Positions 24,801 through 54,720 of a stretch of DNA of 64,000 bases are shown one piece after another. The translations under genes were made by a program, and so were the position numbers. This stretch comes from Candidatus Thalassarchaeaceae archaeon (GTDB lineage Archaea; Thermoplasmatota; Poseidoniia; Poseidoniales; Thalassarchaeaceae). Position 1 is the stretch's first letter, and every line of letters begins with the position of its first letter. The stretch spans positions 18,602-82,601 of the forward strand of contig JASLKP010000002.1 in the NCBI GenBank assembly GCA_030747485.1, read 5' to 3'. The notes under the pieces are model-generated. The model ran no database searches. It was not told where the DNA came from and saw only the letters and a list, made by a program, of their open reading frames with translations.

Positions 24801-27800
24801 GCCGCCTTCAAAGCAGGCGTTGTTCAATCAACATCACCTCAAGTGATTGATGCAGTGCAACCCGCGGTCAATCTCGATGAGGATAGCATCGCTGAATGTT
24901 ATCGTCAAGCAAAGGAAGAATTTGTTGCCAAAATCGTATCAGAGATTGCAGGTTTCCCTCTTAGAATGATTCATGGTTCTGCAAATTTAATCACCATTGG
25001 AATCAATCCAGATCAATTATTGAATATTCACCGTACCATCCAAAATTCAATTCGGGTAAAAGGCACTACATCTGCGAAAACACTCCCTGAATTGGTTGAA
25101 TGGTTGGATGAAGTTCCCGGTGGAGAATCAGTTGCCATTGAACGGTTTGGAAAAACGAGAACGACCCATGTACCTCCCTCAACGAGTCAACAACACATCC
25201 CACCACCTGCAGTTATCTCCGATCCTTTGGCCAATCGTCGTTCCAATCCATATGTTGTCACCGGAGTTAGTTTGGGTCTCCCTGGCATGTCAGAAGTTTT
25301 CGCCCCGGATGCACTTGATCGAATCATCGCCGGTGAGAATTTCATCTCTGAATTATCAGATGAAATCAAACAGAGATTGTTGGATAAGAACTTGATTAGA
25401 ATTGTCAAGCATAAAGACGGTTCTGCTGATTTTGTTCCTTGTGATTCGTTTGAACTCATTCCACAACTCGCTGGTAGGGCTGGTTATTTCGATTTGGCAG
25501 AACAGTATGGAGTGGACTCAAAAATTGCAGATGCGATGGATATCTCCACGAGCCTTGCCGTTGCGGCTGGACTAGAGGCCTTGAAGGATGCAGGATTGCC
25601 ACTGATTGCAGTAGAACAGACGAATAAAGCAGGTAAAAGAATCATACAGAAATGGAATCTTCCAGAATCGGAAAGAGACCGAACAGGTGTTGTCTTTGCC
25701 TCTTGTTTTCCTGGCATAGACATGGCAATCAAACATGCACAGAATAACGGTGCGGATGTAGATGGAAATTTTGATCGCCAATATCTTCTCCAAATTCTGA
25801 CCATGGGTCACTCACAGTTTGCCCAATGGATTGGGGCCAGGGGTCCAAATACTGCTGTAAACAATGCTTGCGCATCAACACCTGCAGCCATCGCTGTGGC
25901 TGAGGATTGGATGGCTACTGGCCGCTGTGACCGTGTCATTATTGTTAGTGCAGATAACGTAACCAGTGACAATCTGATGGAATGGATTGGCGCTGGTTTT
26001 GCCGCAGCTGGAGCCCATGCAATTGGCAATGTTGTCGAAGAGGTTGCTTTACCGTTCGATGTGCGACGAAATGGAATGCTGTTAGGAATGGGTGCTTGTG
26101 CGCTTGTTCTTGAGCGTTCAAAGGATGCTACAGAACGTGGTGTCATTCCATATGTCGAATTGTTAGGTGCACATATCGGGAATTCAGCCTATCACCCCAC
26201 TCGATTGGATGTCGACCATGTTTCAACATCACTTGATCAATTCATGTCAAAGATGGAGGAAGATTGGAACATCAATCGTCACACTATTGCTGCAAACTTA
26301 TCGTTCATGTCTCATGAGCCAGCAACACCGCCAAGAGGTGGCTCGGCTGCCGCTGAAATCCAAGCCTTGCGCCATACATTTGGTGAAAGCGCATCTAAGA
26401 TAATCATCACGAATACGAAGGGATTCACAGGTCACCCTATGGGGACTGGAATTGAGGATGTGGTTGCCATTCGTGGCTTAGCCCAAGGTGAATTCCCTCC
26501 GATTGCAAACTTCCAGCAACCAGATCCTGAACTTGGAGATTTACACTTGTCAGTTGGTGGTCCAGTGGATGTACAATACGTCTTACGACATGCTGCGGGT
26601 TTTGGTTCTCAAATGGCATTGACATTCCTCAAGAGAATTGCCTCTGATTTGAATCGAACAGATCAATCACGTCTTGCTTCATGGACATCAAATGTGGTAT
26701 CTGGTTCAGTTGATCTCAGAATTCTGAAACGAAAATTGGTTGCCTATGTTGACCCTGATGAACATCTAATCGGGGGAGTACAAGGAGAGCCCTTTGCAAT
26801 CGCGGAAATGAAGATTGAAGTTGTTGATCAAACACCGGTTGAGATTGAAACTCAACCCCTCATTGAACCCAGTGCCTCACCACCACCTTCTGGAGATGTA
26901 GCTGACAAAGTCGTCGAAGTAGTCGTCAAGCATACTGGTTACCCCGCAGATTTCATTGAACTTGATCAGGACTTAGAGGGGGAATTGGGCATTGATACTG
27001 TCAAGCAGGCAGAAATCATGGCAGAACTACGAGAGTTCTACGGGTTACCAGTGGACGAATCCTTCGTTCTTTCAGAACATCCAACTCTCAATCACATGAT
27101 TGCCTATCTGGATCAAGGTAGTGACTCTCCACCTGTTGATCCCGTTGAAGAATCAATGCCCCCTCTTCCTGATCCAACGGCGATAACACCACCAGTTGAA
27201 TCAGAAAAAACCGGTGTAAGACGTTGGCAAGTGGAGGTCGAAGAAGCCCCGCCTGAAGCCTCAACTCCCCTGGACATAGAGGGTAAAGTCATCGCAGTAA
27301 CCGATGACCCTTGGGGAATTGCAGATACCCTTTGTCATATTCTTGAAGCTGCAGGAATCGATACTGTTAGAATCATGCTTGACCCCAGTATCGTATCGAA
27401 GATTAAGATTGAGAAAGATGGAATGGTTGACATAATTCGCGTAGATCCAGAAAATCATCAACAATTGGAGGAGGTCAGCAAACATCTTGCCGATGTTGGT
27501 GAAGTCGTAGCATTACTGCACCTAGCTCCCTTACGACTTGCTGGTGTTGGATGGGATGAAGAAACACAGGCAGCACATCTTGCATCATCTACACATGGAC
27601 TGTTTGGCTTGCTTAAATCACTAGATGGCCACTTCTCCTCCTTATCTGATGGGACTGTCATGTCTGTGAGCGCAATGGATGGTCGCCATGGAAATGTCAG
27701 TGATCGTTTCAACGCGTTAGCAGCGGGATCTCATGGGATCGTCAAATCATATGCAAAGGAACATCCACATCTTCGCTGTCGGGCTGTTGATATCGACCCT

Positions 27801-38515: not shown

Positions 38516-39217
38516 TTGGCTCGAAAAGTGAAGGAAATATCCGAACGTGTTCGAATTGAGGGCCGCTCTCTTTGGTCTCGAAATGCTGTCAAGGGTGTCA
38601 GCCTTCGAGGGGAGCGATTGAAGCGTGATGGACGTAAAGAATGGCGTCAATGGAGTCCAAGAACCTCAAAACTTGGAGCTGGAATTCTCCGTGCAAATAC
38701 CAACGTTTCTGATTTACTACCTTCTGTTGGAACAACTTGCCTTTACCTTGGTGCTGGTCACGGGACAACCATCAGCCATTTGCACGACCACGTATGTGGT
38801 TCGAAAAATCATCTCAATGGATCGATTCTAGCTGTGGACTTATCCTCAAGATGCATTCGTGATTTGATTCGAATGGCAGACGTAAGACCAGGGTTGATGC
38901 CTGTATTAGCGGATGCTCGCGCTCAAAACGCGCTCACACCCTTTTTGTCCTCAAAGGTTTCATGGATTTTCCAAGATGTTAGTCAAACAGGACAAGTTGA
39001 GATGTTCATCAAATCTTGCAAACAATTTCTAGCGCCAGGGGGGACAGCGATTTTGTCACTTAAAGCCGCGAGTGAACGCCGAATCGAGGGTGGTGATATT
39101 GCGCAATTCGATCATGCTGAAACATCACTCTTATCCGCTGGCCATGAATTGATTGAACGCATCAATCTTGCAGGTTGGGAAAACCAACACGTGTTATTTC
39201 ATACCAAGGTGAATTGA
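38516..39217 (+). CDS. flpA: Fibrillarin rRNA/tRNA 2'-O-methyltransferase
   Basis: WSPRTSKLGAGIL and the SAM motif CLYLGAGHGTTISHLHDHV, located directly after nop5. TTG start per the track. Confidence 0.9.
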   Translation: MARKVKEISERVRIEGRSLWSRNAVKGVSLRGERLKRDGRKEWRQWSPRTSKLGAGILRANTNVSDLLPSVGTTCLYLGAGHGTTISHLHDHVCGSKNHLNGSILAVDLSSRCIRDLIRMADVRPGLMPVLADARAQNALTPFLSSKVSWIFQDVSQTGQVEMFIKSCKQFLAPGGTAILSLKAASERRIEGGDIAQFDHAETSLLSAGHELIERINLAGWENQHVLFHTKVN

Positions 39218-40041
39218 TGCCTGAATTACCTGAAGTCGAAACCGTGTGCAAGGGATTGTCGGCCTATCTTACCGGAAAACGAATTGTTCAACTTGAATTG
39301 AATCGAAACGATTTACGTTTCCCGTTCCCGGATGATTTGAAATCTGTAGAAGATCGAGCAATTCTCGATATTCATCGTCGTGCGAAGTACATATTGATTC
39401 GATTGGAAGATGATTTGACAATGCTCGTGCATCTCGGGATGTCTGGTCGATTTAGATTCCATGAACATCCTGTGGCACATGAGAAGCACGATCACGTGAT
39501 TATTCACCTCAATGATGGTTCAGTCGCCATATACACTGACCCTCGCAGATTCGGAGTCATTGACCTCATTCACGAAGAAGACAATCACAAGTTGCTCAAC
39601 CACCTCGGTCCAGAACCATTGTCCACATTGTGGAATGGAGATGTATTATTGAAATCTCTCAGAGGACGCAAAGTCTCAATCAAATCAGCTCTGATGAATC
39701 AAAAAATTGTCGTTGGTGTCGGGAATATCTACGCTAGTGAAGTACTATTCTTGGCGAAAGTAAGTCCGAATCGGAAGGCCTGCAATATCAGTCTACCACA
39801 AGCAAATAGAATCCATACTGCAACCGTACAGATTCTACAAGATGCAATTGCTGCAGGTGGTTCCACTCTTCGTGACGGTCAATTCACTGACATCGAAGGA
39901 GAATTAGGTTATTTTCCGCACCAATTCGCTGTCTATGACCGCGAGGGGCTTGAATGTGTCAACCCAAATTGCACTGAATTAGTGAAGAAATCAGTCCATC
40001 TGGGTCGTTCAACCTATCATTGTACAGCCTGTCAGCGTTAA
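39217..40041 (+). CDS. mutM: Formamidopyrimidine-DNA glycosylase (Fpg/MutM family)
   Basis: Catalytic N-terminus MPELPEVE, an H2TH region and a C-terminal zinc finger CVNPNC...CTAC. The ATG overlaps the fibrillarin TGA (TGATG). Confidence 0.85.
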   Translation: MPELPEVETVCKGLSAYLTGKRIVQLELNRNDLRFPFPDDLKSVEDRAILDIHRRAKYILIRLEDDLTMLVHLGMSGRFRFHEHPVAHEKHDHVIIHLNDGSVAIYTDPRRFGVIDLIHEEDNHKLLNHLGPEPLSTLWNGDVLLKSLRGRKVSIKSALMNQKIVVGVGNIYASEVLFLAKVSPNRKACNISLPQANRIHTATVQILQDAIAAGGSTLRDGQFTDIEGELGYFPHQFAVYDREGLECVNPNCTELVKKSVHLGRSTYHCTACQR

Positions 40042-40212: not shown

Positions 40213-40821
40213 ATGACGGATGGAATTGACCAAAAAGGTGCGTTGGCTGAGCTTGTAGGTAGCCTAGCAGTAACGCTCCTTGTATTTGGAGAAACAGGAT
40301 GGGACCACGGTACAGCAGCACAGGCTGGTGCCGCCGGTGTAGCATTGGCAATCATGTGGATGACCTTTAAGGGGTCTGAAATTTTGCCAATCCTAACAAT
40401 CGGAAATATGGCCTCTGGAAGAACTGACTGGCAAACGGGTGCACTGAACTTCTGCATGCAGGTCCTTGGGGCCCTTATCGCATCAGGCGTACTCTTCTGG
40501 CAGGCATCACAGGCTGAGGGAAGTGTTTTCTCAGCAGGTGATGAGTTGGGCGCAACCGGTGCAGTCACTGCATTGCTCGGTGGTTTCCTGATGATGACGG
40601 TATGGGATCGCCTCGGCGGCGGTTGGGAATCTGGTGCTTTTGCAGCAATTCTCGTTCTCGCTGGTGTAACCCTTGCCTCAGCTAGCAGCCTCGGCGGCAT
40701 GATTGTCGAGTCTGGCTGGACTCAGGACAACTTCGTGAACATTCTAGGTACACTGATTGTTGGTGGTATTGGTTCAGCCGGTGCACTAATGCTTAGTGAC
40801 GAATTGTTCGAAGAAGAGTGA
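40213..40821 (+). CDS. MIP/aquaporin-family-like membrane protein lacking both NPA boxes
   Basis: Collinear with the bona fide aquaporin at 44715-45380: LTIGNMASGRTDWQTG vs ITIGMMASKRMDSKTG. GGHVNPA is replaced by GSEILPI, and GAAMNPARW by GGMIVESGW. Confidence 0.55.
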   Translation: MTDGIDQKGALAELVGSLAVTLLVFGETGWDHGTAAQAGAAGVALAIMWMTFKGSEILPILTIGNMASGRTDWQTGALNFCMQVLGALIASGVLFWQASQAEGSVFSAGDELGATGAVTALLGGFLMMTVWDRLGGGWESGAFAAILVLAGVTLASASSLGGMIVESGWTQDNFVNILGTLIVGGIGSAGALMLSDELFEEE

Positions 40822-40852: not shown

Positions 40853-40901
40853 GGGTGATCCGTGGGGCGGCTTTCGCTGCCCCCGGGTCACCCTTTTTTT
40901 T
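40853..40901 (+). terminator. Intrinsic-terminator-like hairpin plus T8 tract
   Basis: Imperfect ~16-bp GC-rich stem GGGTGATCCGTGGGGCGGC-TTTC-GCTGCCCCCGGGTCACCC, followed by TTTTTTTT (40894-40901), 32 nt after the stop at 40821. Confidence 0.6.
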
Positions 40902-40944: not shown

Positions 40945-41691
40945 ATGTACATGGAGTTCCCAGTCACATTCTGGGGAATCCCTGCCCATCTTGTCTTTGA
41001 GTTGCTTGGATATGTCATTGGATTTACCCTTCTGATGAGGGAACGTCGACTTCACGGAGACACGGTTGATAGTGAGAATCGTGCATGGCTGATTTTCGCA
41101 GCATTGTTGGGTGCTCTTTTCGGTGCTAGGTTACTTGCTCTGCTTGAACATTCAAATCAGATTGGTGGAGATGTCCCCATTCTATTCGTTGGTGGAAAGA
41201 CAATCGTGGGTGGTTTGCTTGGAGGAACCATTTCCATTGAAATCGCAAAGAAATTTCTCGGCATTACTACCCGAACCGGCGATGTCTACGTCACGCCATT
41301 GATTGCCTCCATGGCCATTGGCAGAATCGGTTGCTTCCTCACTGGACTAGATGATGGTACACATGGATTCCATACCGATTTACCATGGGGTGTGGATTTT
41401 GGTGACGGTGCTCGCCATCCAACACAATTGTACGGGATTCTTGCACTCGGGGCGATTTGGTTGATTCTTGAAAAATTAGATACACCAATCGTCGGTCAAC
41501 GTTTTCAGATGTTCATGATTTTCTATCTAATCTGGCGAATCTTCGTTGATACAATCAAGGATACAACACCAGTACATTTCATCGGATTAACACCGATTCA
41601 ATGGGCTTGTATCCTCGGTTTGGTGTGGTTCTTTACGTACGGACGTCCGGGTGAACGTTCAATAAGTAAGGTGGATGGACTACTGTCATGA
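40945..41691 (+). CDS. lgt: Prolipoprotein diacylglyceryl transferase (Lgt)-like membrane protein
   Basis: GGKTIVGGLLGG and GRIGCFLTGLDDGTHG...LPWGVDF...RHPTQLYG match the Lgt signature (GRxGNFxN...PW...RHPSQLYE). Polytopic. Confidence 0.7.
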   Translation: MYMEFPVTFWGIPAHLVFELLGYVIGFTLLMRERRLHGDTVDSENRAWLIFAALLGALFGARLLALLEHSNQIGGDVPILFVGGKTIVGGLLGGTISIEIAKKFLGITTRTGDVYVTPLIASMAIGRIGCFLTGLDDGTHGFHTDLPWGVDFGDGARHPTQLYGILALGAIWLILEKLDTPIVGQRFQMFMIFYLIWRIFVDTIKDTTPVHFIGLTPIQWACILGLVWFFTYGRPGERSISKVDGLLS

Positions 41692-43190
41692 GTGGCAAGG
41701 TACGTGATTACCTGTTTTACGACACGGCCACCAGTGTTTGCTCAGATTGTCTCCGCAGAACGGATGGCAAAATCATCATTCAGGAACACAACGTATTCAT
41801 GGACAAAATGTGTTACTCCTGTGGGAAGCGCGAAAAGGTCCTGATTTCAGATGATGCTGAATACTATCGTCGCTGCCGTGAGGTGTTCGTCAAACCAAGC
41901 GAAATGCCAGAGCGATGGAATACCCCAATGAAATATGGCTGCCCCTATGATTGCGGACTTTGTCCTAGTCACGAGCAACATTCTTGTTTGTCAATCATTG
42001 AAATCACAGATCACTGTAATCTTCGCTGTCCAGTCTGTTATGCAGATAGTGGTCCTCATCGAAAGCAGGATTATCGCTCGCTAGAACACATCATTGAGAT
42101 GTTAGATGCCGTTGTCGCCAATGAGCTTGAGCCCGATGTGATTCAAATCTCTGGCGGGGAACCGACCATTCACCCTGACTTTTTCAGAATACTGGATGAG
42201 GTCAAAGCACGTCCTGTTCAGCACCTAATGGTCAATACAAATGGTCTACGGATTGCACAAGAGCCGGAGTTTGCAGAGCGTTTAGCATCCTACAAGCCAG
42301 GATTTGAAATCTATTTGCAATTTGATAGTCTTGAGAAGGAACCGCTGATGAGATTACGTGGAGCAGACTTGCGAGAATCACGCCGAAAGGCATTGGAAAA
42401 TCTTGAGGCTCACAACATCTCAACCACACTCGTAGTGACGCTACAGAAGGGCCTCAACGATCATGAAATTGGTTCCATCATTGAGCACGCGCTCTCATGG
42501 AATTGCATTCGCGGGGTAACCTTCCAACCCATTCAGGAGGCCGGACGTCACGAGGATTACGACGTGTCACGTGACCGTTTAACCCTCTCCGAGGTCAGAC
42601 GAATGATTGGTGAACAATCTGACATTTTTGAAATCGATGATATGCTTCCAGTTCCTTGTCATCCAGATGCAATCGCCATGGCATATGCCATGCGAGTGGG
42701 TGAAACAACGATTCCACTCACCCGTTACATCGAAGATGATGTGCTCTTGGCAGGTCCACGTTCAACAATTCAGTTTGAGAAGGATGAAATTTTGAGACAG
42801 AACATTCTCGGTTTGCTTTCGACAGCACATAGTCCAGATTCAGCAAGTCATTCGCTTGCTCAACTTCTCTGTTGTTTGCCTGAACTAGAAGTGCCAACCG
42901 AATTTTCCTATGACAATGTGTTCCGCATCATCATCATGGATTTCATCGATGCACATTCCTTTGATTTGCGGAGTATCAAGAAAACCTGTGTACACATCGT
43001 TAGCCCAGACTTGCGATTGATTCCATTTGACACATACAACATGTTCTATCGTGGTGCATTGGAAGATACCGTTCTCGCCCCAATTCGTGAAGAACTTGCT
43101 CTCGCAGGAATGGCACTTTTAACTAAAGAAGAAAAACAGCAACTGAACGGTAAGTTGCCGATGATCGAAGGAGAGGTTGCCGATGAATGA
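41688..43190 (+). CDS. Radical SAM enzyme with N-terminal rubredoxin-like Cys knuckles and an auxiliary cluster motif (COG1964 / Tes-GDGT-MAS-like)
   Basis: CSDC...CYSC, then CPYDCGLCPSHEQHSC, then the radical SAM CNLRCPVC and a GGEPT SAM-binding motif. The ATG overlaps the lgt-like stop (ATGA). Confidence 0.8.
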   Translation: MSGKVRDYLFYDTATSVCSDCLRRTDGKIIIQEHNVFMDKMCYSCGKREKVLISDDAEYYRRCREVFVKPSEMPERWNTPMKYGCPYDCGLCPSHEQHSCLSIIEITDHCNLRCPVCYADSGPHRKQDYRSLEHIIEMLDAVVANELEPDVIQISGGEPTIHPDFFRILDEVKARPVQHLMVNTNGLRIAQEPEFAERLASYKPGFEIYLQFDSLEKEPLMRLRGADLRESRRKALENLEAHNISTTLVVTLQKGLNDHEIGSIIEHALSWNCIRGVTFQPIQEAGRHEDYDVSRDRLTLSEVRRMIGEQSDIFEIDDMLPVPCHPDAIAMAYAMRVGETTIPLTRYIEDDVLLAGPRSTIQFEKDEILRQNILGLLSTAHSPDSASHSLAQLLCCLPELEVPTEFSYDNVFRIIIMDFIDAHSFDLRSIKKTCVHIVSPDLRLIPFDTYNMFYRGALEDTVLAPIREELALAGMALLTKEEKQQLNGKLPMIEGEVADE

Positions 43191-43974
43191 CGATAACCAG
43201 CAAACCTTGTTCTCGGGAACCACGGCCACACTTTCTGGTGGCGTTGATCAAACCGTACACACAACGGCCCCCGACAACGTCCAGTTCGTGATGGGTCCTG
43301 ATGGCCAGATGGTTGCTATTCAGAAGGAACCATTCGTTTGGAAGCAATTTTTCATTGGGCTTATAATCCCGATCTTGCTTTTACTCGTACCTTCAATGAC
43401 AATGATCACCATCGAAGGCATCTACTACTCAAAATATGAATATCGGGATGAAGTTGTGTTGATGACCCAAGTCAACAACACAACTGAACATACTGGTTAT
43501 TTTGAAGTGCCAAGTGGGTACGATGTACATTGGTGTCACGTCGATTTCTATGACAATGGGTCTTTACACGATCCAGACCGTTATGATTGTAGCACATTTG
43601 AGGGGGACGGCGACAAAACGATTGCAATCGAGATCTACTTCGAGCGGGAATGGGATGACATCGAAGTTGTCGGTACTTGGACTGCCTCAAATGGAACTGT
43701 GTATTTTGACGATGGTGATCATCATAATTCTTCGTTTGCGGTTATCTTTCAAATCGACAACGAGCCAGAAGAAATGGATGATTTTTATTGGACATTACAG
43801 GGTTTGTACCCAATCTGTTGTTTGCTCGCACCATTATCTGGAATTGGTCTAGCAGTCTACGGTTTTTCAGCCGCTAAGAGATCACTTGGAATCGGTGCAC
43901 TAACTGCATTGGCAGCTGGTCCTATTTTGACGATTTTTGCTTGTATAGGCATGATGCTTTTGTATGGTTTTTGA
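43183..43974 (+). CDS. Hypothetical membrane protein (GPDGQMVA-motif family, paralog A)
   Basis: FVMGPDGQMVAIQKEPFVWKQFFIGLIIPI, then a TM, an extracytoplasmic insert and C-terminal TMs with SGIGLAVYG. Overlaps the radical SAM stop (alternative ATG at 43177). Confidence 0.55.
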   Translation: MNDDNQQTLFSGTTATLSGGVDQTVHTTAPDNVQFVMGPDGQMVAIQKEPFVWKQFFIGLIIPILLLLVPSMTMITIEGIYYSKYEYRDEVVLMTQVNNTTEHTGYFEVPSGYDVHWCHVDFYDNGSLHDPDRYDCSTFEGDGDKTIAIEIYFEREWDDIEVVGTWTASNGTVYFDDGDHHNSSFAVIFQIDNEPEEMDDFYWTLQGLYPICCLLAPLSGIGLAVYGFSAAKRSLGIGALTALAAGPILTIFACIGMMLLYGF

Positions 43975-43982
43975 TGATTTAG

Positions 43983-44624
43983 ATGCGTGATTATTCCGAG
44001 ATGACAGTTGCCGAACTCAAGTTCCTGTTGAAGGCTGAAGGCTTGCGTGTATCAGGCAATAAGGCTGAACTCATTGAACGACTTGAATCACATTCAAGAG
44101 AATCAAATCCTGAACCCTCTTCGGACGATAAATACGAAATTACCTGTGAATCCTGTCATACGATTCTGAGAGTACCTCACGCATATTCTGGGGGCGTTAC
44201 TTGCCCGAAATGTTTCACCAAAACCCAAGTCACCAGTCAAGTCAACGCCTCTAATTTGTCTGGAATGGCCTCTGATGATCATTCAAATGATTTTCAACAA
44301 GCATCTGAAGATTACGATTTTGTTGTAGGTCCCGATGGTCAAATGGTTGCCGTCAAGAAGACTTCCGGCCAATTTCTTTGGACGCATTATTTCGCAGGGT
44401 TGATCATTCCAATCGTCATCTTCTTTTCTTCTATACCACTCGCCGAGGCAGAAGAAGCCGTATGTTGGTTGGGGCCAAGTAGTGGTGTCGGACTTGCGGT
44501 ATTTGGTCTTGCCACGGGACGTCCGGGTCTTGCATCTGGAGCCTTTACGGGAATCGTGATTCTTCCAACGATTTTCGTGATTGGTTGTTTCCTATTAGTA
44601 TGCGGTCCAATGATGGTGGCATAA
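43983..44624 (+). CDS. SAP-domain / zinc-ribbon membrane protein (GPDGQMVA-motif family, paralog B)
   Basis: N-terminal SAP-like MTVAELKFLLKAEGLRVSGNKAELIERL. Zn ribbon CESC...CPKC. FVVGPDGQMVAVKK...FAGLIIPI and SGVGLAVFG are shared with the upstream ORF. Confidence 0.6.
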   Translation: MRDYSEMTVAELKFLLKAEGLRVSGNKAELIERLESHSRESNPEPSSDDKYEITCESCHTILRVPHAYSGGVTCPKCFTKTQVTSQVNASNLSGMASDDHSNDFQQASEDYDFVVGPDGQMVAVKKTSGQFLWTHYFAGLIIPIVIFFSSIPLAEAEEAVCWLGPSSGVGLAVFGLATGRPGLASGAFTGIVILPTIFVIGCFLLVCGPMMVA

Positions 44625-44714
44625 TCTGAATGTGAGGTCACAACTCCAATCTTTTCCGCATGATTGATAGTCGGTCGTCATTGCGTTGCCGACATCCCAA
44701 GGGGTGTCAATCAC

Positions 44715-45380
44715 ATGTCAGAAAATCTTCAATCGAAATTAATTGCCGAAGCCATTGCTACATTTGCCTTAACATTCATCGGTGCTGGTGCGATTTGGGT
44801 CGGTGGTGATTTACTGACCGTCGCAATTGCGCATGGTCTGATTTTATCGGTCATGGTCACTGCAACGATGAACATCTCAGGTGGCCATGTGAATCCGGCC
44901 ATTACAATCGGAATGATGGCTTCAAAGCGCATGGATTCAAAGACGGGTGGCGCATACATCGCCGCTCAACTTGGTGGTGCCATCCTTGCTGGGGCCATTC
45001 TGTACAGTCTAGGTGGTGGTGGTGCTGGAACTCCGGCACCCCAAGAGTTCGAAGGCTCAATGGTCTCAACTCAATCAGCGATTCTCGTTGAAGCGGTCCT
45101 AACCTTCCTTTTGATGACTGCAATCATGGGTACTGCAGTCGATGGTCGCGCCCCTGCTGGAATTGCTGGTTTTGGTATCGGTTTGACCGTGACAGTCGAC
45201 ATTCTGATGGGTGGTCCATTGACTGGTGCTGCAATGAATCCAGCACGTTGGGCAGGCACATGGGTGTTTGGTGATATGGAGAATAATATCGATCTCATCA
45301 TCTACACTGTCGGTCCAATTCTAGGTTCACTATTGGGGGTCTTGCTGTGGGACAAGATGATGGACGCATCCGACGAATAA
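44715..45380 (+). CDS. Aquaporin / MIP channel
   Basis: Two NPA boxes (SGGHVNPAITIG and GAAMNPARW) and six hydrophobic helices. Confidence 0.9.
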   Translation: MSENLQSKLIAEAIATFALTFIGAGAIWVGGDLLTVAIAHGLILSVMVTATMNISGGHVNPAITIGMMASKRMDSKTGGAYIAAQLGGAILAGAILYSLGGGGAGTPAPQEFEGSMVSTQSAILVEAVLTFLLMTAIMGTAVDGRAPAGIAGFGIGLTVTVDILMGGPLTGAAMNPARWAGTWVFGDMENNIDLIIYTVGPILGSLLGVLLWDKMMDASDE

Positions 45381-48300
45381 TCACATATTTCGTCGGTATT
45401 GTCCACCGACTTCAAACAGAGCCTCAGTGATTTGTCCAAGGCTTGCCACTTTGACGGTCTCCATCAGTTCAGCAAAGACATTCCCACCAGAACGAGCGAC
45501 ATCTTGCAAGCGTGACAATGCCTCAGGTGTCTGCTTTGCGTGCGTCTTGTGGAATTGGGCAAGGCGGGATAAACACCCTTGTTTTTCTTCAGGAGTGGCT
45601 CTGGCCAATTCCATATCGAAATCATCTGCATTTGATTCATCAAACGCAATTGCGTTCGGATTTTCAAAGAAGTTGACTCCCGTAATTGGCAATTCTCCAG
45701 AATGCTTCTGTTCTTCATAGTATAATGATTCATCTTGGATCTTACCGCGTTGATACATGGTCTCCATTGCTCCAAGAACGCCACCACGCTCTGCGATTCT
45801 CTCAAATTCTGTGAGAACTGCTTCTTCGACCAAATCTGTCAACTCATCAACGATGAATGAACCCTGAAGTGGATTTTCGGTCTTGGTCCATCCACTCTCT
45901 TTGTTGACGATTAATTGGACTGCCAATGCTCTGCGAACACTTTCCTCAGTCGGTGTCGTAATCGCCTCATCGTATGCGTTCGTATGTAGGCTATTGGCTT
46001 GATCTTGCACAGCCAATAGTGCTTGTAGCGTGGTTCGGATGTCATTGAAATCAATTTCTTGAGCGTGTAAAGAACGACCCGATGTCTGAATGTGATACTT
46101 CAGTTTCTGCGAGCGCTCGTTACCACTGTACAAATCACGCATGGCCACAGCCCAAATACGGCGGGCTACGCGGCCGATGACTGTGTATTCAGGGTCGAGG
46201 CCATTGGAGAAGAAGAAGGAGAGATTTGGTGCGAATGCATCGATGTCCATTCCGCGACTTCGATAGTATTCAACGTAGGTGAAACCGTTTGCAAGCGTAA
46301 ATGCCAGTTGACTAATCGGATTAGCTCCAGCCTCAGCAATATGGTATCCCGAGATACTGACTGAGTAGTGGTTTCGTATTCCTTGATCAATGTAGAATTG
46401 TTGAACATCTCCCATCAATTTCAAACTGAATTCAGTTGAGAAAATACAGGTATTCTGCGCTTGGTCTTCTTTGAGAATATCCGCTTGAACCGTGCCCCGA
46501 ACAGTCTGCATAGTTGTTGTAGAAATCTGTTCATATTCAGTCTCGCTAGGTGGTCGGCCATTTTCATCTTGGAATTTCGCAACCTGCTGTCGAATGGCTG
46601 CATTGAAGAACATCGCTAGAATGATTGCTGCGGGCCCATTGATGGTCATGGATACACTTGTATTCGGGTCACACAAATCAAAACCATCGAACAACGTACT
46701 AATCTCATCTACCGTGTAGATGCTGACACCCGATTCACCAACCTTGCCATAGATATCTGGTCGAGTATGCGGGTCGCGACCATAGAGTGTCACACTGTCA
46801 AAAGCCGTTGAGAGTCTAGCGTAATCTTCGCCCTCACTCAGGTAATGGAATCGCTTGTTGGTTCGTGCAGCAGGTCCTTCACCAGCAAACATTCGGGTGG
46901 GCAACTCGTCCGCTCGCTTGAAGGGGAAAACTCCAGCGGTGTAGGGGAACGTTCCAGGTACGTTTTCTCTTCGTAGCCATCCAAGAAGGTCACCTGCATC
47001 AGCAAAGTTTGGTAGAGCCACTCTAGGAATGGCTGAATGTGCCAATGATTCGGTGGTGGTATCCACTGAAAAGTCACGCCCTCGAACTTGGTAGGTGTAG
47101 GTCCCTGTGCGGTATTGTTTAGCCCGCTCTTCGTATTCTGCAATCATTTTCCATGCCATTGGATGGATGGTATTGCGTACATCTTCTGCCTGAATACGAA
47201 TGTCAGCGACTGCACTTGCTGCTCCCGTGGAGAGTGTACTTCCTGTACCATCAGCAAGGCTTGCCATATGTGCAGCAGTTGCTTCCAATTGCTGAACCAA
47301 ACGTACCTTCTGTGACATCTCATTGGTTCTCTCATGATAATCACGAACGGTGCGAGAAATATCAGCGAGGTAGTGTATCCTTTCTGGCGGAATGATATGA
47401 TTGGGTTCTGGCATTCCAGATTCGGGTAATTCGGGCTCTCGAGCAGCAAGAATCATGCCTTTTCGATCGGCGAGAATTCCGGCCAGTCGCTCCCATAGTA
47501 AATCGACCCCAGGGTCAGAAAATTGGTTCGCAATGGTGGGAATGACAGGCAATGCAGCATCTTCCATGTCAAACAGATTACGATTACGTTTCACTTGTTT
47601 TCTAATGGCACGTAGGGCATCTTCAGCTCCTCGCTTTTCGAATTTATTGAGAATCACTAAGTCAGCCACATCCAGCATCTCAATCTTCTCAAGTTGTGTA
47701 TGTGCACCAAATTCACTGGTCATCACATACAGGCTAATGTCGCTAACATCGGTGACTGCATCGCTGCCTTGTCCGATTCCACTGGTTTCAACAAAGATGA
47801 GGTCATAACCTACTGCCTGGCAAACTTCGATGGCCTCACGAGTCTTATCTGACAGTTCCTTACCGCTACTTCGACTTGCTAGACTTCGCATGAACAATTG
47901 ATCACTGGCAAGTGTATTCATGCGAATTCGATCTCCAAGCAAAGCGCCACCCGTACGTTTTCGAGTTGGATCAGTACAGAGCATTGCAACATTGAGATTG
48001 GGATTTTGTGAGGTGATTCGACGCATCAATTCATCGAGTAAACTGGATTTCCCAGCACCTCCTGTTCCTGTGAAACCAATTACTGGTGCTCTTGTCTCAA
48101 TGGGTTGGGAGCGACAATTCTTGAGAAGTTGAGCAAAGGTCACAGGGTCGGCATTTTCTGCATAACTAATCAAACGAGCCACTTTCTCCCGATTTGAAGT
48201 GGTCACTGGCCCATTCAGTTGCATGTTGTCTCCGCCGAGTAAATTGCATTGAGCCGCTTGTTCAACGAGATCATCAATCATCCCAAGTAGTCCCATTTTT

Positions 48301-48731
48301 CGTCCATCATCAGGACTGTAAATTCGTGTGATCCCTAAATCATGAAGGTCCCGAATCTCGGGTGGTGTAATGGTGCCACCACCACCTCCAAAGATGCGAA
48401 TATCGGGTCGCCCTGCAGCGTTTAGTAATTCACGAATATAGGTGAAATATTCCATGTGGCCGCCTTGATATGATGTGAGTGCAACCGCATGAGCATCTTC
48501 CTCAATGGCGGCCTTCACAACATCCAATGCACTTCTGTCATGTCCGAGATGAATGACTTCACATCCTGCGGATTGGATGAGGCGTCGCATGACGTTGATT
48601 GCAGCGTCATGCCCATCGAACAGGGATGCAGCTGTGATGACTCGCAATGGGATGCCAGATGCATCTAGTGCACCTGAATCACTGTCCTCTGAGGGAGAGG
48701 ACGCACTGCTCGCCATAATACTGGGAGTCAT
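45381..48731 (-). CDS. icmF: Fused isobutyryl-CoA mutase (B12-binding domain - MeaB-like GTPase - mutase barrel)
   Basis: N-terminal RVITAASLFDGHDAAINVMRRL...HLGHDRS (B12-binding), P-loop GFTGTGGAGKSSL, and a C-terminal methylmalonyl-CoA-mutase-like substrate domain. The 1116-aa length and domain order are diagnostic of IcmF. Confidence 0.9.
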   Translation of the reverse strand: MTPSIMASSASSPSEDSDSGALDASGIPLRVITAASLFDGHDAAINVMRRLIQSAGCEVIHLGHDRSALDVVKAAIEEDAHAVALTSYQGGHMEYFTYIRELLNAAGRPDIRIFGGGGGTITPPEIRDLHDLGITRIYSPDDGRKMGLLGMIDDLVEQAAQCNLLGGDNMQLNGPVTTSNREKVARLISYAENADPVTFAQLLKNCRSQPIETRAPVIGFTGTGGAGKSSLLDELMRRITSQNPNLNVAMLCTDPTRKRTGGALLGDRIRMNTLASDQLFMRSLASRSSGKELSDKTREAIEVCQAVGYDLIFVETSGIGQGSDAVTDVSDISLYVMTSEFGAHTQLEKIEMLDVADLVILNKFEKRGAEDALRAIRKQVKRNRNLFDMEDAALPVIPTIANQFSDPGVDLLWERLAGILADRKGMILAAREPELPESGMPEPNHIIPPERIHYLADISRTVRDYHERTNEMSQKVRLVQQLEATAAHMASLADGTGSTLSTGAASAVADIRIQAEDVRNTIHPMAWKMIAEYEERAKQYRTGTYTYQVRGRDFSVDTTTESLAHSAIPRVALPNFADAGDLLGWLRRENVPGTFPYTAGVFPFKRADELPTRMFAGEGPAARTNKRFHYLSEGEDYARLSTAFDSVTLYGRDPHTRPDIYGKVGESGVSIYTVDEISTLFDGFDLCDPNTSVSMTINGPAAIILAMFFNAAIRQQVAKFQDENGRPPSETEYEQISTTTMQTVRGTVQADILKEDQAQNTCIFSTEFSLKLMGDVQQFYIDQGIRNHYSVSISGYHIAEAGANPISQLAFTLANGFTYVEYYRSRGMDIDAFAPNLSFFFSNGLDPEYTVIGRVARRIWAVAMRDLYSGNERSQKLKYHIQTSGRSLHAQEIDFNDIRTTLQALLAVQDQANSLHTNAYDEAITTPTEESVRRALAVQLIVNKESGWTKTENPLQGSFIVDELTDLVEEAVLTEFERIAERGGVLGAMETMYQRGKIQDESLYYEEQKHSGELPITGVNFFENPNAIAFDESNADDFDMELARATPEEKQGCLSRLAQFHKTHAKQTPEALSRLQDVARSGGNVFAELMETVKVASLGQITEALFEVGGQYRRNM

Positions 48732-48791: not shown

Positions 48792-50582
48792 TCAGGCGTA
48801 CATGTCCTCAATCTGTGTTGTCCAATTCTCACGAATTTGGATTCTTCTGATTTTCAGGGTGGGCGTCAATTCGCCATCATCCACTGTGAAGTCTCTTGGT
48901 AGAATCGTGAACTTCTTGATTTGTTCAGGTGGTGCAAACTGCTTGTTCAATTCCATCACTTGCGCTTCAACTTCGGCGTGAATATCGGTACTGTCAGTGT
49001 ATTCTGAAAGTTGGTGCCCCTGTTCGTTCAATAGTGCGATTTGCTTGGCAGGATCTTTGGGTAAATGTGCTCCATCCATACCAAACTTATCTCGTAAAAT
49101 CGCAGATACATCCAGTGTGAGTAGAGCACTGCAGAATTTCCGGCCATCTCCAACCAAGAAACACTGAGAGACCAGCGGGATTGCCTTCATCGTCTCTTCA
49201 ATCAGTAGGGGAGCGATATTCTTGCCACCCGAACTGATGTACAGTTCCTTCTTTCGACCGGTAATCGTAACGAATCCTTCGTCGTCGATTTTTCCAATGT
49301 CACCTGAACGCAACCATTCTCCATCCATGACTTCAGCAGTTGCATCTGGATTGTTGTAATATCCCTTCATGACGTGGCGACCACGGAACATGATTTCACC
49401 ATCTGTATCCGTTTTCAACTCGGTTCCTGGCATTGTTCGGCCAACAGAACCAATTTTCACGTTGTTCTTGTAATTGAGCGAAGCTCCAGCTGTGGTCTCC
49501 GTCATTCCATATCCTTCGTACAGAGGTACACCAATGTGATGGAATAATTTCAAAATATCTGGATTGATTGGTGCTGCACCGGTAATGGCATACTTGCAGT
49601 TGACCATTCCAATCTTCTTTTTCACAGCCTTTTGCAAGACCTTCTTCAACCCTGGAATCTTGAGACCGATTCGGATGACAGCCTTGGAATCCAAGGTGCT
49701 CTTGAGATTCGAGTATACCTTCTCATAGATTCGTGGAACACCAATGAACAGTGCAGGTTGCACCTTCTTTGCATAATCAACAGCATGTAGTGCATTGTCG
49801 ACTACGTGCAAGTGCATTGCATCGCGCACCCACAGATGATTGTCGGCTACTTGGCCGAATACATGGGCCAAAGGAAGCCAAGAAACATAACAATCTCCGG
49901 GATTGAAACTGATGACTGTTTCGATTGCATCTAATTCGAATGTGAAATTGTCGTAGCTCAATTCTACACCCTTTGGATTGCCAGTGGTTCCAGAGGTGTA
50001 GATTAGGGCGCAGGTGTCATGAGGGTCGACACCACTCATTCGTTCCTTGATAGTTGCATCATCGACGCCATCTCCTGCCGCCAAGAAATCTGCCCATGAT
50101 ATTGAGAGATCTGAATTCATGGAGCCTGAGTCTTCAAGCACAATCGCATTCTGAATCAGAGGAAGGTTACCCATGATTTTGTCCATACGTGTGTTGGGCA
50201 TTTTCGAAGAATCATCTCCGCCCTGTGGGTTGGTGCCCACGAAGACAAACTTGGATTCCGAATTCCCGACAACCCATTCGACTTCTTCAGGTGAACAGGT
50301 ATGATACACGCCTACTGCGACGCCATTGAGCATTTGAGATGCTGCATAAATTAGGAACCATTCAGGTCGATTGTAAGAATAGATACTGAGTTTGTCATGT
50401 TTTTCATATCCCATTGCATGCAATGATTTGGCGATTGCCAACGTCTTGGAAAGTACTTCTGACCATGTGTCAGTATTCCATTCCCAATCTACGCCTCTCT
50501 GCGCTTCTCCTTTTCTGGTCGACATTGCAGGCATATTACCGTATTTTTCGGCATTACGAAACAGGTATTCCGGGGTTATCAT
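48792..50582 (-). CDS. Long-chain acyl-CoA synthetase (AMP-forming)
   Basis: AMP-binding motifs YTSGTTGNPKGV, GYGMTETT and GDIGKIDDEGFVTITGRKKE; 596 aa. Confidence 0.85.
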   Translation of the reverse strand: MITPEYLFRNAEKYGNMPAMSTRKGEAQRGVDWEWNTDTWSEVLSKTLAIAKSLHAMGYEKHDKLSIYSYNRPEWFLIYAASQMLNGVAVGVYHTCSPEEVEWVVGNSESKFVFVGTNPQGGDDSSKMPNTRMDKIMGNLPLIQNAIVLEDSGSMNSDLSISWADFLAAGDGVDDATIKERMSGVDPHDTCALIYTSGTTGNPKGVELSYDNFTFELDAIETVISFNPGDCYVSWLPLAHVFGQVADNHLWVRDAMHLHVVDNALHAVDYAKKVQPALFIGVPRIYEKVYSNLKSTLDSKAVIRIGLKIPGLKKVLQKAVKKKIGMVNCKYAITGAAPINPDILKLFHHIGVPLYEGYGMTETTAGASLNYKNNVKIGSVGRTMPGTELKTDTDGEIMFRGRHVMKGYYNNPDATAEVMDGEWLRSGDIGKIDDEGFVTITGRKKELYISSGGKNIAPLLIEETMKAIPLVSQCFLVGDGRKFCSALLTLDVSAILRDKFGMDGAHLPKDPAKQIALLNEQGHQLSEYTDSTDIHAEVEAQVMELNKQFAPPEQIKKFTILPRDFTVDDGELTPTLKIRRIQIRENWTTQIEDMYA

Positions 50583-53007: not shown

Positions 53008-54720
53008 TTAGTCCCCCATGACTGTCGCGGCCAACGGAGGCATTTCAACTCCAGCCGTCACAAACCAATCTTCCACGGATTCAAACACAGCATCTTTACG
53101 AGTTTTTTTTACCCGTTCAGTAATGAGCTTCCAAGCCGATTTTTCGCCAATTCCTGGAATCGCTTCCAATTGTTTTTGAGTGATTTCATCTTTGTTTAAT
53201 CCAATTTCAATTCCAGTAATCGATCGTGCACCATGACCGGTAACAATGATGTCTGAAGTGGATTCTAATGGAATGTGATACGGAATACCTATGAGGATTG
53301 GATAGGCACCAATTTGTCGTCCAAATGTGATGCCAGCCTTACCATGAATGGCTCGATCTTTGTGTTCCGGTTCAAGGTGAGCCGGAAGTCTGATTCGACC
53401 ATCATGTGCTTCCCACGTTACATCATTCAATCGTTGCCCCAATGGGAATAATTCTGTTAGCATCGGAGAATCAATCGAATCTCTTGTCCAATGTTTGAAG
53501 TCATTAAATGAATCAACAGGAATGTCTTGGAATCCATCACCCTCAACTTGTCGAATATTGATTCTACGTAGCCACAATCCTTCATCTCTAATCTCTTGGA
53601 GAAGTGTTTTGTTCATCTTGTACGAATCATCCGATTCTCCATTGAGTCCAGCGATAAAATTGAGGCCAGGAAGAAGCATGGGTAATCCTCTCGGCCCACG
53701 TTTTCGCCCATATTCATTGATTAATCGAATGGCCGTTTTGAGTTGTTGAGAATCACAATTGAGCCAATTTTCTTGGTGTACGGTTGGGTCTGCAGATTCT
53801 AATCCAAAAGAAAGAACAGACCCATCTGAAAGTGTCTCCACCATCGTCTTTGTTATCATCGTGGACGGCTCAATATTTTCGGCAATTATTGAAGGATTTG
53901 CATTGTCTACATGTAGCGTTTCCAATCGTTCATCTGCACGTAGTCCATGCAATAGATTTGCAATCGGTTCAGGATTAGGAACAGGATATTCAAGTTCGAT
54001 GACTCCATCTGCCATGTATGTGTATACATCAGTCATTCCACCGAGTCTTACATGTTTCACGCCTTGATCTAAGGCGATTTTCACCTCACTGATGACGTCC
54101 TCTGGGGTGCGCCAAATTGGGACACCTTTCTTCGGTTCAATACAGAATTTACATCCACGTTTGTAACGTACACAGCCTTGGTAAACTTCGACTTCGTAAG
54201 TGAGTGGCCCGTTCAAATCTGGATGTTCGGTGACCGCTTTTGATGCTGCACCAAATGCTGCCCATTCAGTCCATTGTTCGGCACTTCTTCGTTGATGTTT
54301 GAATGAACCTGTTGAGAGGAAATGATTCAGTGTAGCATCAGTGTCTTGAACGCAGAGAAAGAGATTCTTTCTCATCGGTTGCCATCCCTGTTGTCTCCAA
54401 CCACGAATGGCCCAACCGCCAGCAATCAATGGAACATTGCTGGGGAGCGTTCGAACCAATTCATCAGTCTCTCGAAATGAGATTGGTGTGCCGCGTAGAT
54501 ACTTGCCGGGAACCACCGCTCCAGCGATGATTACAATCCCATCGAGTTCACGAAGATTTGGTCTTGCACCGAGTCTCCATTGGTCAATTGTAAGATAATC
54601 ATAGTCGATGCCTTGTTTTTCCAATACTCCACAGGTATATCGGATATGAAATCCAACATATGGGGGGACACCGAAGGCTGCCGGTTCATCCTCGTATCCA
54701 TCAAGGACCAGCCAGGCCAT
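53008..54720 (-). CDS. Radical SAM superfamily enzyme with C-terminal helix-hairpin-helix (COG1031-like)
   Basis: Cys triad GCVRYKRGCKFCIEP and C-terminal HhH LEAIPGIGEKSAWKLI; 570 aa. Confidence 0.7.
   Translation of the reverse strand: MAWLVLDGYEDEPAAFGVPPYVGFHIRYTCGVLEKQGIDYDYLTIDQWRLGARPNLRELDGIVIIAGAVVPGKYLRGTPISFRETDELVRTLPSNVPLIAGGWAIRGWRQQGWQPMRKNLFLCVQDTDATLNHFLSTGSFKHQRRSAEQWTEWAAFGAASKAVTEHPDLNGPLTYEVEVYQGCVRYKRGCKFCIEPKKGVPIWRTPEDVISEVKIALDQGVKHVRLGGMTDVYTYMADGVIELEYPVPNPEPIANLLHGLRADERLETLHVDNANPSIIAENIEPSTMITKTMVETLSDGSVLSFGLESADPTVHQENWLNCDSQQLKTAIRLINEYGRKRGPRGLPMLLPGLNFIAGLNGESDDSYKMNKTLLQEIRDEGLWLRRINIRQVEGDGFQDIPVDSFNDFKHWTRDSIDSPMLTELFPLGQRLNDVTWEAHDGRIRLPAHLEPEHKDRAIHGKAGITFGRQIGAYPILIGIPYHIPLESTSDIIVTGHGARSITGIEIGLNKDEITQKQLEAIPGIGEKSAWKLITERVKKTRKDAVFESVEDWFVTAGVEMPPLAATVMGD

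Follow-up and report, generated by a model that had tools for sequence, protein, structure and literature searches.

A conserved module pairing an Lgt-like membrane protein with a GDGT-MAS-superfamily radical SAM enzyme, apparently of bacterial origin, in Marine Group II archaea

We analyzed 64,000 nucleotides of DNA from a Candidatus Thalassarchaeaceae archaeon (assembly GCA_030747485.1, contig JASLKP010000002.1, positions 18,602 to 82,601 of the forward strand), referred to as the window herein. In it, a gene for an Lgt-like membrane protein is coupled to a gene for a protein of the radical S-adenosylmethionine (SAM) type that is related to GDGT-MAS, the archaeal enzyme of glycerol dialkyl glycerol tetraether (GDGT) formation also called Tes. 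The Lgt-like gene (40945..41691, + strand) encodes an Lgt-family paralogue of 248 aa, a polytopic membrane protein with the Lgt fold, as judged from Pfam LGT, family alignments, and a structural model. Since its homologues open with "M-x-FPV," the alternative ATG at 40951 may be its true start. The radical SAM gene (41688..43190, + strand) begins with ATG and encodes a 500-aa protein of the COG1964/GDGT-MAS superfamily without a transmembrane segment. The two genes are translationally coupled: the TGA stop of the first shares bases with the ATG of the second in an ATGA overlap (41688..41691, + strand), where the sequence reads "tcATGAgt." Both open reading frames (ORFs), this overlap, and every Lgt and Cys motif quoted in an earlier, model-generated reading of the DNA (the original prediction) are present in the sequence.

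Two further genes follow on the same strand. ORF3 (43183..43974, +) encodes a membrane protein of 263 aa, and its first 8 nt, from the ATG at 43183, are also the last of the radical SAM gene (ATGAATGA). The original prediction had ended the coupled unit at 43190; the unit reaches past this point. ORF4 (43983..44624, +; 213 aa) starts 9 nt after ORF3 and matches Pfam SAP with 47.9 bits. On the upstream side, an exceptionally stable hairpin with a U8 run behind it (40853..40901, + strand) sits between a MIP-like ORF and the Lgt-like gene. It has an 18-bp stem, a minimum free energy of -40.4 kcal/mol, and a z of -6.75 computed against 200 shuffles. A consensus terminator scan did not report this hairpin, which looks like a terminator marking the 5′ boundary of the operon.

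To place the gene pair among its relatives, we scanned GTDB species genomes and collected at least 80 loci among the matches listed, a sample that gives no estimate of how many Poseidoniales species carry the module. A family hidden Markov model (HMM) found the Lgt-like gene upstream and on the same strand in 72 of 85 loci, and eight of the other 13 have less than 1 kb of upstream sequence. In 47 of the 72, the Lgt-like stop overlaps the radical SAM start or lies no more than 30 nt from it; most of the others have small membrane ORFs inserted between the two genes. The genes are also naturally fused: P0298 (733 aa) joins Pfam LGT to Zn_ribbon_HMPTM and Radical_SAM, and a second fusion, P0412, is 671 aa long. 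Radical SAM branches that are just 44% and 32% identical to the window protein still show the coupling, and none of the true Tes and true TrsS loci that we examined has an Lgt-like neighbor. Lastly, the distance matrices of the two proteins correlate with a Mantel r of 0.82, a value reached in 0 of 2000 permutations. The coupled module of the original prediction is thereby borne out, and the pair is very strongly conserved among relatives. At the level of genes and their sequences, the Lgt paralogue and the Tes-superfamily radical SAM protein form one conserved, co-evolving functional unit. We rejected ParA, ParB, and GidB, which neighbor the pair in Acidobacteria, as parts of the system; they reflect housekeeping synteny.

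Among the GTDB matches listed, the archaeal loci include one metagenome-assembled genome (MAG) of Marine Group II (MGII) type at 76% identity and one Halobacteriales MAG at 63%. The bacterial loci come from Acidobacteriota, Rhodanobacteraceae, Burkholderiales, Paenibacillaceae, Bacillaceae, and Myxococcota, and further from Planctomycetota, Eisenbacteria, Elusimicrobia, Gemmatimonadota, and Chloroflexota. Apart from marine relatives at 72-93% identity, thousands of bacterial proteins are homologous to the radical SAM protein at 59-65% identity; within the family, the window protein shares 54-65% identity with bacterial members and 71-93% with those of MGII. Proteins at least 90% identical to the radical SAM protein, the Lgt-like protein, and the fibrillarin of the window are assigned to Candidatus Thalassarchaeaceae or Candidatus Thermoplasmatota archaeon, and a more distant Lgt-like relative to Candidatus Poseidoniaceae. 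The genes that flank the module are archaeal and include Nop5 and fibrillarin. By these names and flanks, the window belongs to a Marine Group IIb archaeon (Poseidoniales). Within MGII, the order Lgt-like, radical SAM, ORF3 recurs in five lineages, each in an otherwise different context: the window, L003 (83% identity), L006 (76%), L088 (75%), and L086 (71%).

In a rooted neighbor-joining (NJ) tree, the MGII sequences were monophyletic in 100% of bootstraps and nested among bacterial sequences, which argues for horizontal transfer. Bacteria were monophyletic to the exclusion of MGII in just 1.5% of bootstraps, and the Halobacteriales MAG branched apart from MGII. The tree points to a single ancient transfer from bacteria into MGII, after which the genes were inherited vertically and under purifying selection. 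Both proteins of the pair are under such selection; for the radical SAM gene, pN is 0.13-0.21 against a saturated pS of 0.82-0.88. The GC content of the region (0.44-0.50) is unremarkable and gives no compositional sign of a recent transfer. The expectation that the module lies outside the standard archaeal repertoire has held. The module is essentially bacterial and, by this phylogeny, horizontally acquired; neither the bacterial origin nor a third component had figured in the original prediction. The Halobacteriales MAG (locus L018, CAZXUC010000008.1, 5256..8176) carries a triad of Lgt-like, radical SAM, and small Cys-bearing proteins at 63% identity that branches among bacteria. Triads of this type may explain the "Tes homologs" of Halobacteria that make no GDGTs (PMC8941075), with MAG contamination a possibility here.

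We then considered the radical SAM protein itself, which matches Pfam Radical_SAM (88 bits) and Zn_ribbon_HMPTM (40.3 bits). Its N-terminal part holds a zinc-ribbon or rubredoxin-like site, C18xxC21...C42xxC45 (41739..41822, + strand), recognized by Pfam PF23545 and in alignments. This site is Cys4 in MGII members versus Cys3His in bacterial members and in GDGT-MAS, where it reads C9X2C12X20C33X2H36 (PMC9433317). An auxiliary [4Fe-4S] motif follows, C85x3C89x2C92 (with H95 and H98) x7C100 (41940..41987, + strand), whose four Cys are invariant in family alignment A2. It aligns to the GDGT-MAS motif "GCPYDCGLCPNH," and the [4Fe-4S]N ligands of GDGT-MAS are C73, C77, C80, and a His (PMC9433317). 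The radical SAM motif proper, C110x3C114x2C117 (42015..42038, + strand), is kept in 80 of 80 superfamily members in alignment A4. By sequence, the protein matches the GDGT-MAS structure 7TOL in two stretches (E = 1e-62). Its AlphaFold model, of moderate quality (predicted local distance difference test (pLDDT) 67.7, predicted template modeling score 0.73, weak in 354-402), matches 7TOL/7TOM over 512 columns with a template modeling score (TM-score) of 0.72 (E = 1e-28), and the next fold matches, SkfB, MoaA, and SuiB, reach 0.35-0.41. The predicted structure has the four-domain fold of 7TOL, and the protein is, as modeled, a full-length structural relative of GDGT-MAS.

Homologue names in JGI and NCBI, "7,8-dihydro-6-hydroxymethylpterin dimethyltransferase" and "MoaA," together with the Pfam name Zn_ribbon_HMPTM, would instead suggest a role in cofactor biosynthesis, either pterin methylation or molybdopterin synthesis, with the Lgt-like gene a bystander. 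We find this scarcely credible. The HMPTM assignment of MJ0619 was not reproduced and the enzyme was re-identified as GDGT-MAS (PMC9433317), the MoaA models score 62 bits against a cut-off of 284, and both the fusions and the near-universal coupling with a membrane protein speak against incidental adjacency. PADLOC matches of the radical SAM protein to pVip were likewise rejected, as generic core similarity.

Kinship with GDGT-MAS does not extend to orthology with Tes. The NCBIfam Tes model NF045702 scores 265.2 bits against a cut-off of 450 and aligns only residues 14-342, whereas a true Tes representative (P0401) scores 556 bits. The best-scoring curated model is that of TrsS (NF045646), at 303.3 bits against a cut-off of 490; true TrsS representatives (P0417, P0434, and P0387) score 545-698 bits. 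An exhaustive HMMER search of 1.84 billion cluster representatives showed the close family condensed into a few 50%-identity representatives, after which identity falls sharply to 30-49%. The protein is about 31-32% identical to both Tes and TrsS. In an NJ tree of 80 superfamily representatives, labeled by the NCBIfam models, the window clade had 97.5% bootstrap support and Tes and TrsS grouped elsewhere, with the deep branches of this NJ-only tree weakly supported. Taken together, these comparisons indicate that the protein is not a Tes orthologue. The Tes-family layout of the original prediction thus stands for the fold, the N-terminal sites, and the radical SAM motif, and falls for orthology; the protein clusters outside Tes, in a clade for which no other function is defined.

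Tes and the Lgt-coupled proteins also differ in the Cys of the C-terminal domain. Window columns 328, 433, and 448 are Cys in both Tes and TrsS and read A328, T433, and D448 in the Lgt-coupled clade. The clade instead carries an invariant C395-C396 pair ("LLCCLP," 42870..42875, + strand) plus C324 and C434. These columns are defined by the superfamily alignment rather than by the cluster-C ligands of 7TOL. The CC pair is confined to the clade and its close relatives. We accordingly define the Lgt-coupled COG1964 radical SAM clade by an upstream or fused Lgt-like gene, at least about 55% identity, C324, C395-C396, and C434, and D448, all of which apply to the window protein.

With GDGT-MAS/Tes (MJ0619, PDB 7TOL/7TOM; MA_1486; Maeo_0574), the clade shares the superfamily, the fold, and a soluble protein of about 500 aa, as well as the rubredoxin-like site, the auxiliary motif (GCPYDCGLCP.H), the radical SAM motif, and a conserved C-terminal region, "F(M/I)D...FD..R...C.H...PDG..IPF..YN." The clade is mainly bacterial, and its Lgt-like partner gene has no counterpart at true Tes loci. 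TrsS, which appears in the literature searched solely as an uncharacterized selenoprotein family, shares the superfamily, length, and C324. It differs in that the window protein has no selenocysteine and in that TrsS loci lack an Lgt-like gene and carry another radical SAM gene or a methyltransferase fusion. One true TrsS (P0434) is fused to a DVU_1556-family methyltransferase, another (P0417) is lengthened at the C-terminus by about 240 aa rich in Cys, and one member of alignment A4 matched the model of MbdU, a metal-binding double selenoprotein. By these fusions, the extension, and the MbdU match, other branches of the superfamily have obligate partners as well.

The partner protein belongs to Pfam PF01790 LGT (residues 18-227, 78.9 bits against a cut-off of 24.9), and both Lgt equivalog models fail: TIGR00544 at 32.0 against 118.9 and NF000778 at 45.3 against 334. 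A single-sequence phmmer search of the Protein Data Bank (PDB) gave no match at E <= 1, and the family profile aligned to E. coli Lgt (5AZB) with E = 2e-15. Its structural model (pLDDT 81.7) had 5AZB as the sole PDB match at E <= 1e-3 (probability 1.00, TM-score 0.52/0.47). The Lgt motifs are GRIGCF (126-131), LPWGV (146-150), and RHPTQLYG (157-164). Across the family K85, D137, T139, G153-D-G155, R157-H-P159, Y163, K205, and Q219 are invariant.

We next mapped the residues of E. coli Lgt onto this family. R143 and R239, which serve phosphatidylglycerol (PG) binding and C3-O activation in Lgt (PMC4728403), correspond to R127 and R198, invariant in 26 diverse sequences. The equivalents of G142 and G145 and the RHP(S/T)QLY motif are conserved. 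Y235 corresponds to Y194, invariant in alignment A3 and nearly so in A1; E243 is replaced conservatively by D202, and R246 by the invariant K205. By profile alignment, however, Y26 becomes H15, H103 of the HGGL motif becomes V88, N146 becomes an invariant C130, and E151 becomes L135. Mutants of E. coli Lgt in Y26, H103, or E151 are inactive (PMC4728403). The alignment suggests that the second PG site, the Arg pocket that activates the glycerol C3-O-phosphate, is kept and that the first, which selects the substrate, is remodeled, a combination that argues for a paralogue with a different substrate or acceptor. On these residues, we classify the protein as an Lgt-superfamily paralogue and not as the lipoprotein enzyme. 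What had been called a clear Lgt homolog is therefore one by Pfam family, fold, and Arg pair and is not an orthologue (32 versus 118.9 bits; H15, V88, C130, and L135). Among the catalytic Arg, His, and Tyr residues on which that call depended, the Arg residues and Y235 are kept and His103 and Tyr26 are lost.

Compared with E. coli Lgt (PDB 5AZB/5AZC), the protein shares the Pfam family, the fold, and the Arg pair, and the fusions imply a cytoplasmic C-terminus. It differs in its identity of about 22%, in being an accessory copy coupled to a radical SAM enzyme, and in its length, 248 aa against the 291 aa of E. coli Lgt, presumably through a reduced head domain. The AliA/AliB proteins of Haloferax volcanii are also archaeal membrane proteins with conserved arginines, proposed for an Lgt-like job. 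Unlike the present protein, a Pfam-LGT member of bacterial origin, they have no detectable Lgt homology (HHpred 29%). According to a 2025 study, archaea have no identified Lgt homologue (PMC12462473). The module thus puts a Pfam-LGT family protein in archaea, where none was thought present, as a paralogue and not as the lipoprotein enzyme.

Both proteins could still do what their nearest named relatives do, with the radical SAM protein a working tetraether or macrocyclic-archaeol synthase for archaeol-type lipids and the Lgt-like protein a genuine lipoprotein diacylglyceryl (or diphytanylglyceryl) transferase for lipobox proteins. The fold and N-terminal cofactor sites shared with GDGT-MAS, the Pfam LGT membership with its retained Arg pair, and MGII chain termini of the isopropyl type that Tes uses would all fit. 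We nevertheless judge this distinctly improbable. The Tes cut-off is missed (265 versus 450), the clade is separate, and its C-terminal Cys set is different; the closest relatives are bacteria, which lack archaeol; and the Lgt equivalog cut-offs fail, with the equivalents of Y26, H103, N146, and E151 gone. No lipobox signal peptide was found among the 80 ORFs of at least 100 aa in the window, and bacterial hosts are expected to carry a canonical Lgt as well.

A third component became apparent when we inspected the genes downstream of the pair. A small membrane protein of about 85-130 aa is encoded immediately downstream of the radical SAM gene, the two genes often sharing stop and start bases; we saw it in Firmicutes, Rhodanobacteraceae, Bryobacterales, Thermoanaerobaculia, Planctomycetota, Chloroflexota, Eisenbacteria, and the Halobacteriales MAG, and an HMM of the family detects it in 26 of 85 loci. 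Its last helix bears an invariant Cys (consensus ...K-G-K-x-x-T-G-x-G...LL[N/V]AACFG...) in the lipobox-like context [V/N/I]-A-A-C. Because a basic loop precedes this helix, we infer that it runs from inside to outside, with the Cys near its outer end. In MGII, the position is taken by ORF3, kept after the radical SAM gene in L003, L006, L086, and L088. ORF3 has three predicted transmembrane segments, a variable, fast-evolving middle domain that is probably extracellular, and a C-terminal hairpin, "PICC...KRSLGIGALTALAAGPILTIFACIGMM," of the pattern "C-C...KRSLGIG...ILTIFACIGMM"; the L086 orthologue ends in "IIACFGIIFL." From such motifs, it is plausible that ORF3 is homologous to the bacterial "LLNAACFG" protein. 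Pfam, NCBIfam, and PADLOC contain no family for ORF3 and no model specific for any of the three module components.

The same three collections gave Pfam SAP alone for ORF4. An N-terminal SAP domain and a zinc ribbon open this protein, and modules paralogous to those of ORF3 come after them: it repeats the "GPDGQMVA" module of ORF3 ("VVGPDGQMVAVKK" plus a transmembrane segment) and the Cys-bearing C-terminal hairpin. ORF4 is possibly a second partner or a regulator. A DNA-binding-type domain on a membrane protein beside the module is odd, and ORF4 might be a membrane-tethered regulator.

In the Acidobacteriaceae loci L011, L013, L016, L017, L035, and L063, and in L056, L062, and L082, one or two small membrane ORFs lie between the Lgt-like and radical SAM genes. 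Their products are either about 95 aa long, with a conserved "LGLCG" motif, or about 280-320 aa long, with their one Cys located in the first transmembrane helix, and no Pfam family matched them.

A co-encoded small protein raises the possibility that the module matures a protein or peptide. The radical SAM enzyme would modify the small protein at or beside its Cys, for example by a thioether cross-link, the Lgt-like protein would lipidate or scaffold it, and lipid tails would not be the target of the radical. Such a role would account for the invariant-Cys protein encoded beside the radical SAM gene in many phyla, for the single-Cys membrane ORFs that Acidobacteriaceae place between the two genes, and for the clade's own CC motif near the C-terminal cluster, and co-encoded peptides are common substrates of radical SAM enzymes that have auxiliary clusters. 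However, the nearest structural relative is a lipid enzyme, and the peptide maturases SkfB and SuiB match at a TM-score of just 0.35. Moreover, the small gene is HMM-detected in under a third of the loci and is poorly conserved in MGII, and the predicted position of its conserved Cys, close to the outer leaflet, is remote from the cytoplasmic radical SAM site. We regard maturation as an unlikely account.

Our own tentative reading, to which we give a little less than an even chance, is that the locus encodes a horizontally acquired, bacterial-type, three-component membrane module acting as a glycerolipid-tail or lipid-protein modifying complex. Its radical SAM enzyme, which is soluble, would act at the cytoplasmic face of the membrane, since the fusions attach this domain to the C-terminal end of the Lgt-like part. 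GDGT-MAS is a glycerophospholipid-binding enzyme that activates tail termini (PMC9433317). In a similar way, a 5′-deoxyadenosyl radical would abstract hydrogen from the unreactive terminal carbon of a glycerolipid tail lodged in a hydrophobic pocket of the enzyme. The tail would be a phytanyl chain in MGII and an iso-branched acyl chain in most bacterial hosts. Iso-branched fatty acids are major in most of these hosts (Acidobacteria, Rhodanobacteraceae, Paenibacillaceae, Bacillaceae, myxobacteria, and Hymenobacter, with Burkholderiales the exception), and the terminus of an iso-branched chain is identical to that of a phytanyl chain. In the membrane, the Lgt-like protein would use its Arg pair to bind that glycerolipid or a partner of it, and would then either offer the lipid for reaction at its tail or pass the diradylglyceryl group of the lipid on to a thiol. 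The foremost candidate for the acceptor would be the invariant Cys of the co-encoded small membrane protein; alternatively, C130 of the Lgt-like protein could serve. Such a complex would yield a lipid with modified or coupled tails, or an adduct of lipid and protein, and neither a classical lipoprotein nor a classical GDGT.

Lipid-related neighbors give weak support to a lipid role. In five Burkholderiales loci, a fusion of an LplT-like MFS transporter with a PlsC-type acyltransferase (L041, L043, L045, L051, and L057; 650-820 aa, same strand) lies directly upstream of the Lgt-like gene. This fusion resembles a system for lysophospholipid uptake and re-acylation, which hints that the module consumes or damages phospholipids. 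An acyl-activating AMP-binding enzyme is encoded directly downstream at two loci (L058 and L077) and close by at L006 and in the window.

Several observations weigh against the lipid-modifying complex. The C-terminal cluster of GDGT-MAS is the one that bonds the lipid carbon in catalysis (PMC9433317), and since the Cys set of this region differs here, the chemistry may differ too. The Lgt active site opens on the outer-leaflet side and the radical SAM site is cytoplasmic, which leaves their cooperation unexplained. Paenibacillus, Rhodanobacter, Cystobacter, and many other hosts are not known for membrane-spanning lipids. About five loci with sufficient flanking sequence have no Lgt-like gene (L014, L030, L036, L037, and L061). 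In the case of the third component, some MGII homologues of ORF3 lack the Cys of the last helix, although they have one at the start of the preceding helix; the bacterial small-protein HMM gives ORF3 no significant score (domain E of 0.087, full E of about 1, in a tiny database), and hhalign gives the two a 44% probability (E = 2e-4). Lastly, nothing mapped to the module from polyA-selected metatranscriptomes, the sole RNA libraries from matching samples.

A bolder version of the lipid reading, which we hold improbable, is that the triad provides the missing oxygen-tolerant path to lipids that span the membrane through tail-to-tail coupling and that MGII are tetraether producers after all. In this scheme, a lipid from one leaflet would be held by the Lgt-like protein, or fixed by it to the small protein's Cys, and the radical SAM enzyme would couple the tails. 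The products would be iso-diabolic acid, a precursor of branched GDGTs (brGDGTs), in aerobic Acidobacteria and other bacteria rich in iso-fatty acids, and macrocyclic archaeol or GDGT-0 in MGII. The Mss membrane-spanning lipid synthase, reportedly described by Sahonero-Canavesi in 2022, differs from the present enzyme in belonging to a different radical SAM family and in being found in anaerobes.

The literature contains earlier sightings of such proteins. Zeng et al. reported a "Tes homolog" in 1 of 231 MGII MAGs (28% identity, E = 6e-53), drew the conclusion that GDGTs are not made by MGII, and noted unexplained Tes homologues in Halobacteria and 456 in bacteria (Zeng 2022, PMC8941075). At about 31-32% identity to labeled Tes, a comparison that did not include MA_1486, the Lgt-coupled family lies near that level and is probably, by its sequence, this borderline MGII class. 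Bacterial Tes homologues are experimentally unconfirmed (PMC11868695), and the iso-diabolic acid synthase of Acidobacteria is unknown (PMC13159169). Many of the bacterial homologues (Acidobacteria, Myxococcota, Planctomycetota, and Chloroflexota), invoked for brGDGT and iso-diabolic acid and, like the present enzyme, hypothesized to act on iso-branched tails (Zeng 2022), are probably members of the Lgt-coupled branch. Neither Zeng 2022 nor a 2026 review of radical SAM lipid enzymes mentions Lgt or diacylglyceryl, and the full-text literature that we searched holds no description of the Lgt-like/Tes-like pairing or of a third gene. We regard the module as an uncharacterized variant of two known superfamilies with a small partner, neither true Tes nor true Lgt.

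The module bears on two open questions about lipid biomarkers. MGII are among the most abundant planktonic archaea, and their tetraether contribution to the pool behind the TEX86 palaeothermometer is disputed. The case against MGII tetraethers rests on the absence of Tes (PMC8941075), and the module, present in at least five MGII lineages under purifying selection, includes the sole Tes-like enzyme of a group reported to be without any. Hundreds of bacterial "Tes homologues" have been invoked for brGDGTs, and a large branch of them has an Lgt paralogue and a small Cys-bearing membrane protein as obligate partners, by pairing or by fusion. This changes how such enzymes should be expressed and assayed, namely with all components together.

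Several other features of the window were noted. The MIP-like ORF upstream of the module is short (40213..40821, +; 202 aa) and its match is weak, with an E of 4e-4 that falls below the cut-off, and a full aquaporin (AqpZ-like MIP, 143 bits) lies downstream of the module at 44664..45380 (+). The two could be a duplicated or decayed channel gene pair. Adjoining the module is an IcmF-type fused B12 mutase with B12-binding, MeaB, and MM_CoA_mutase domains (45381..48731, - strand; 1116 aa). A mutase of this type stands beside the module in two other MGII lineages as well (loci listed: L006, L088, and L089), an adjacency that may be plain MGII synteny. The long-chain acyl-activating (AMP-binding) enzyme of the window comes next, at 48792..50582. 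A second, unrelated radical SAM protein of 570 aa (PF04055, 40.9 bits) is encoded at 53008..54720 (-). The flanking genes also include a PCNA-like ORF and an ORF with TFS-like zinc-ribbon motifs, which we presume to be such from their translations, by eye. Two giant ORFs at 12895..18747 (+) and 21876..29840 (+) encode 1950 and 2654 aa; they may be surface proteins, large examples of which are typical of MGII. A bacterial-type Fpg/Nei DNA glycosylase (Fapy_DNA_glyco and H2TH; 39175..40041, +), whose longest ORF overlaps the 3′ end of fibrillarin, directly follows that gene and is likely another bacterial import in this archaeon.

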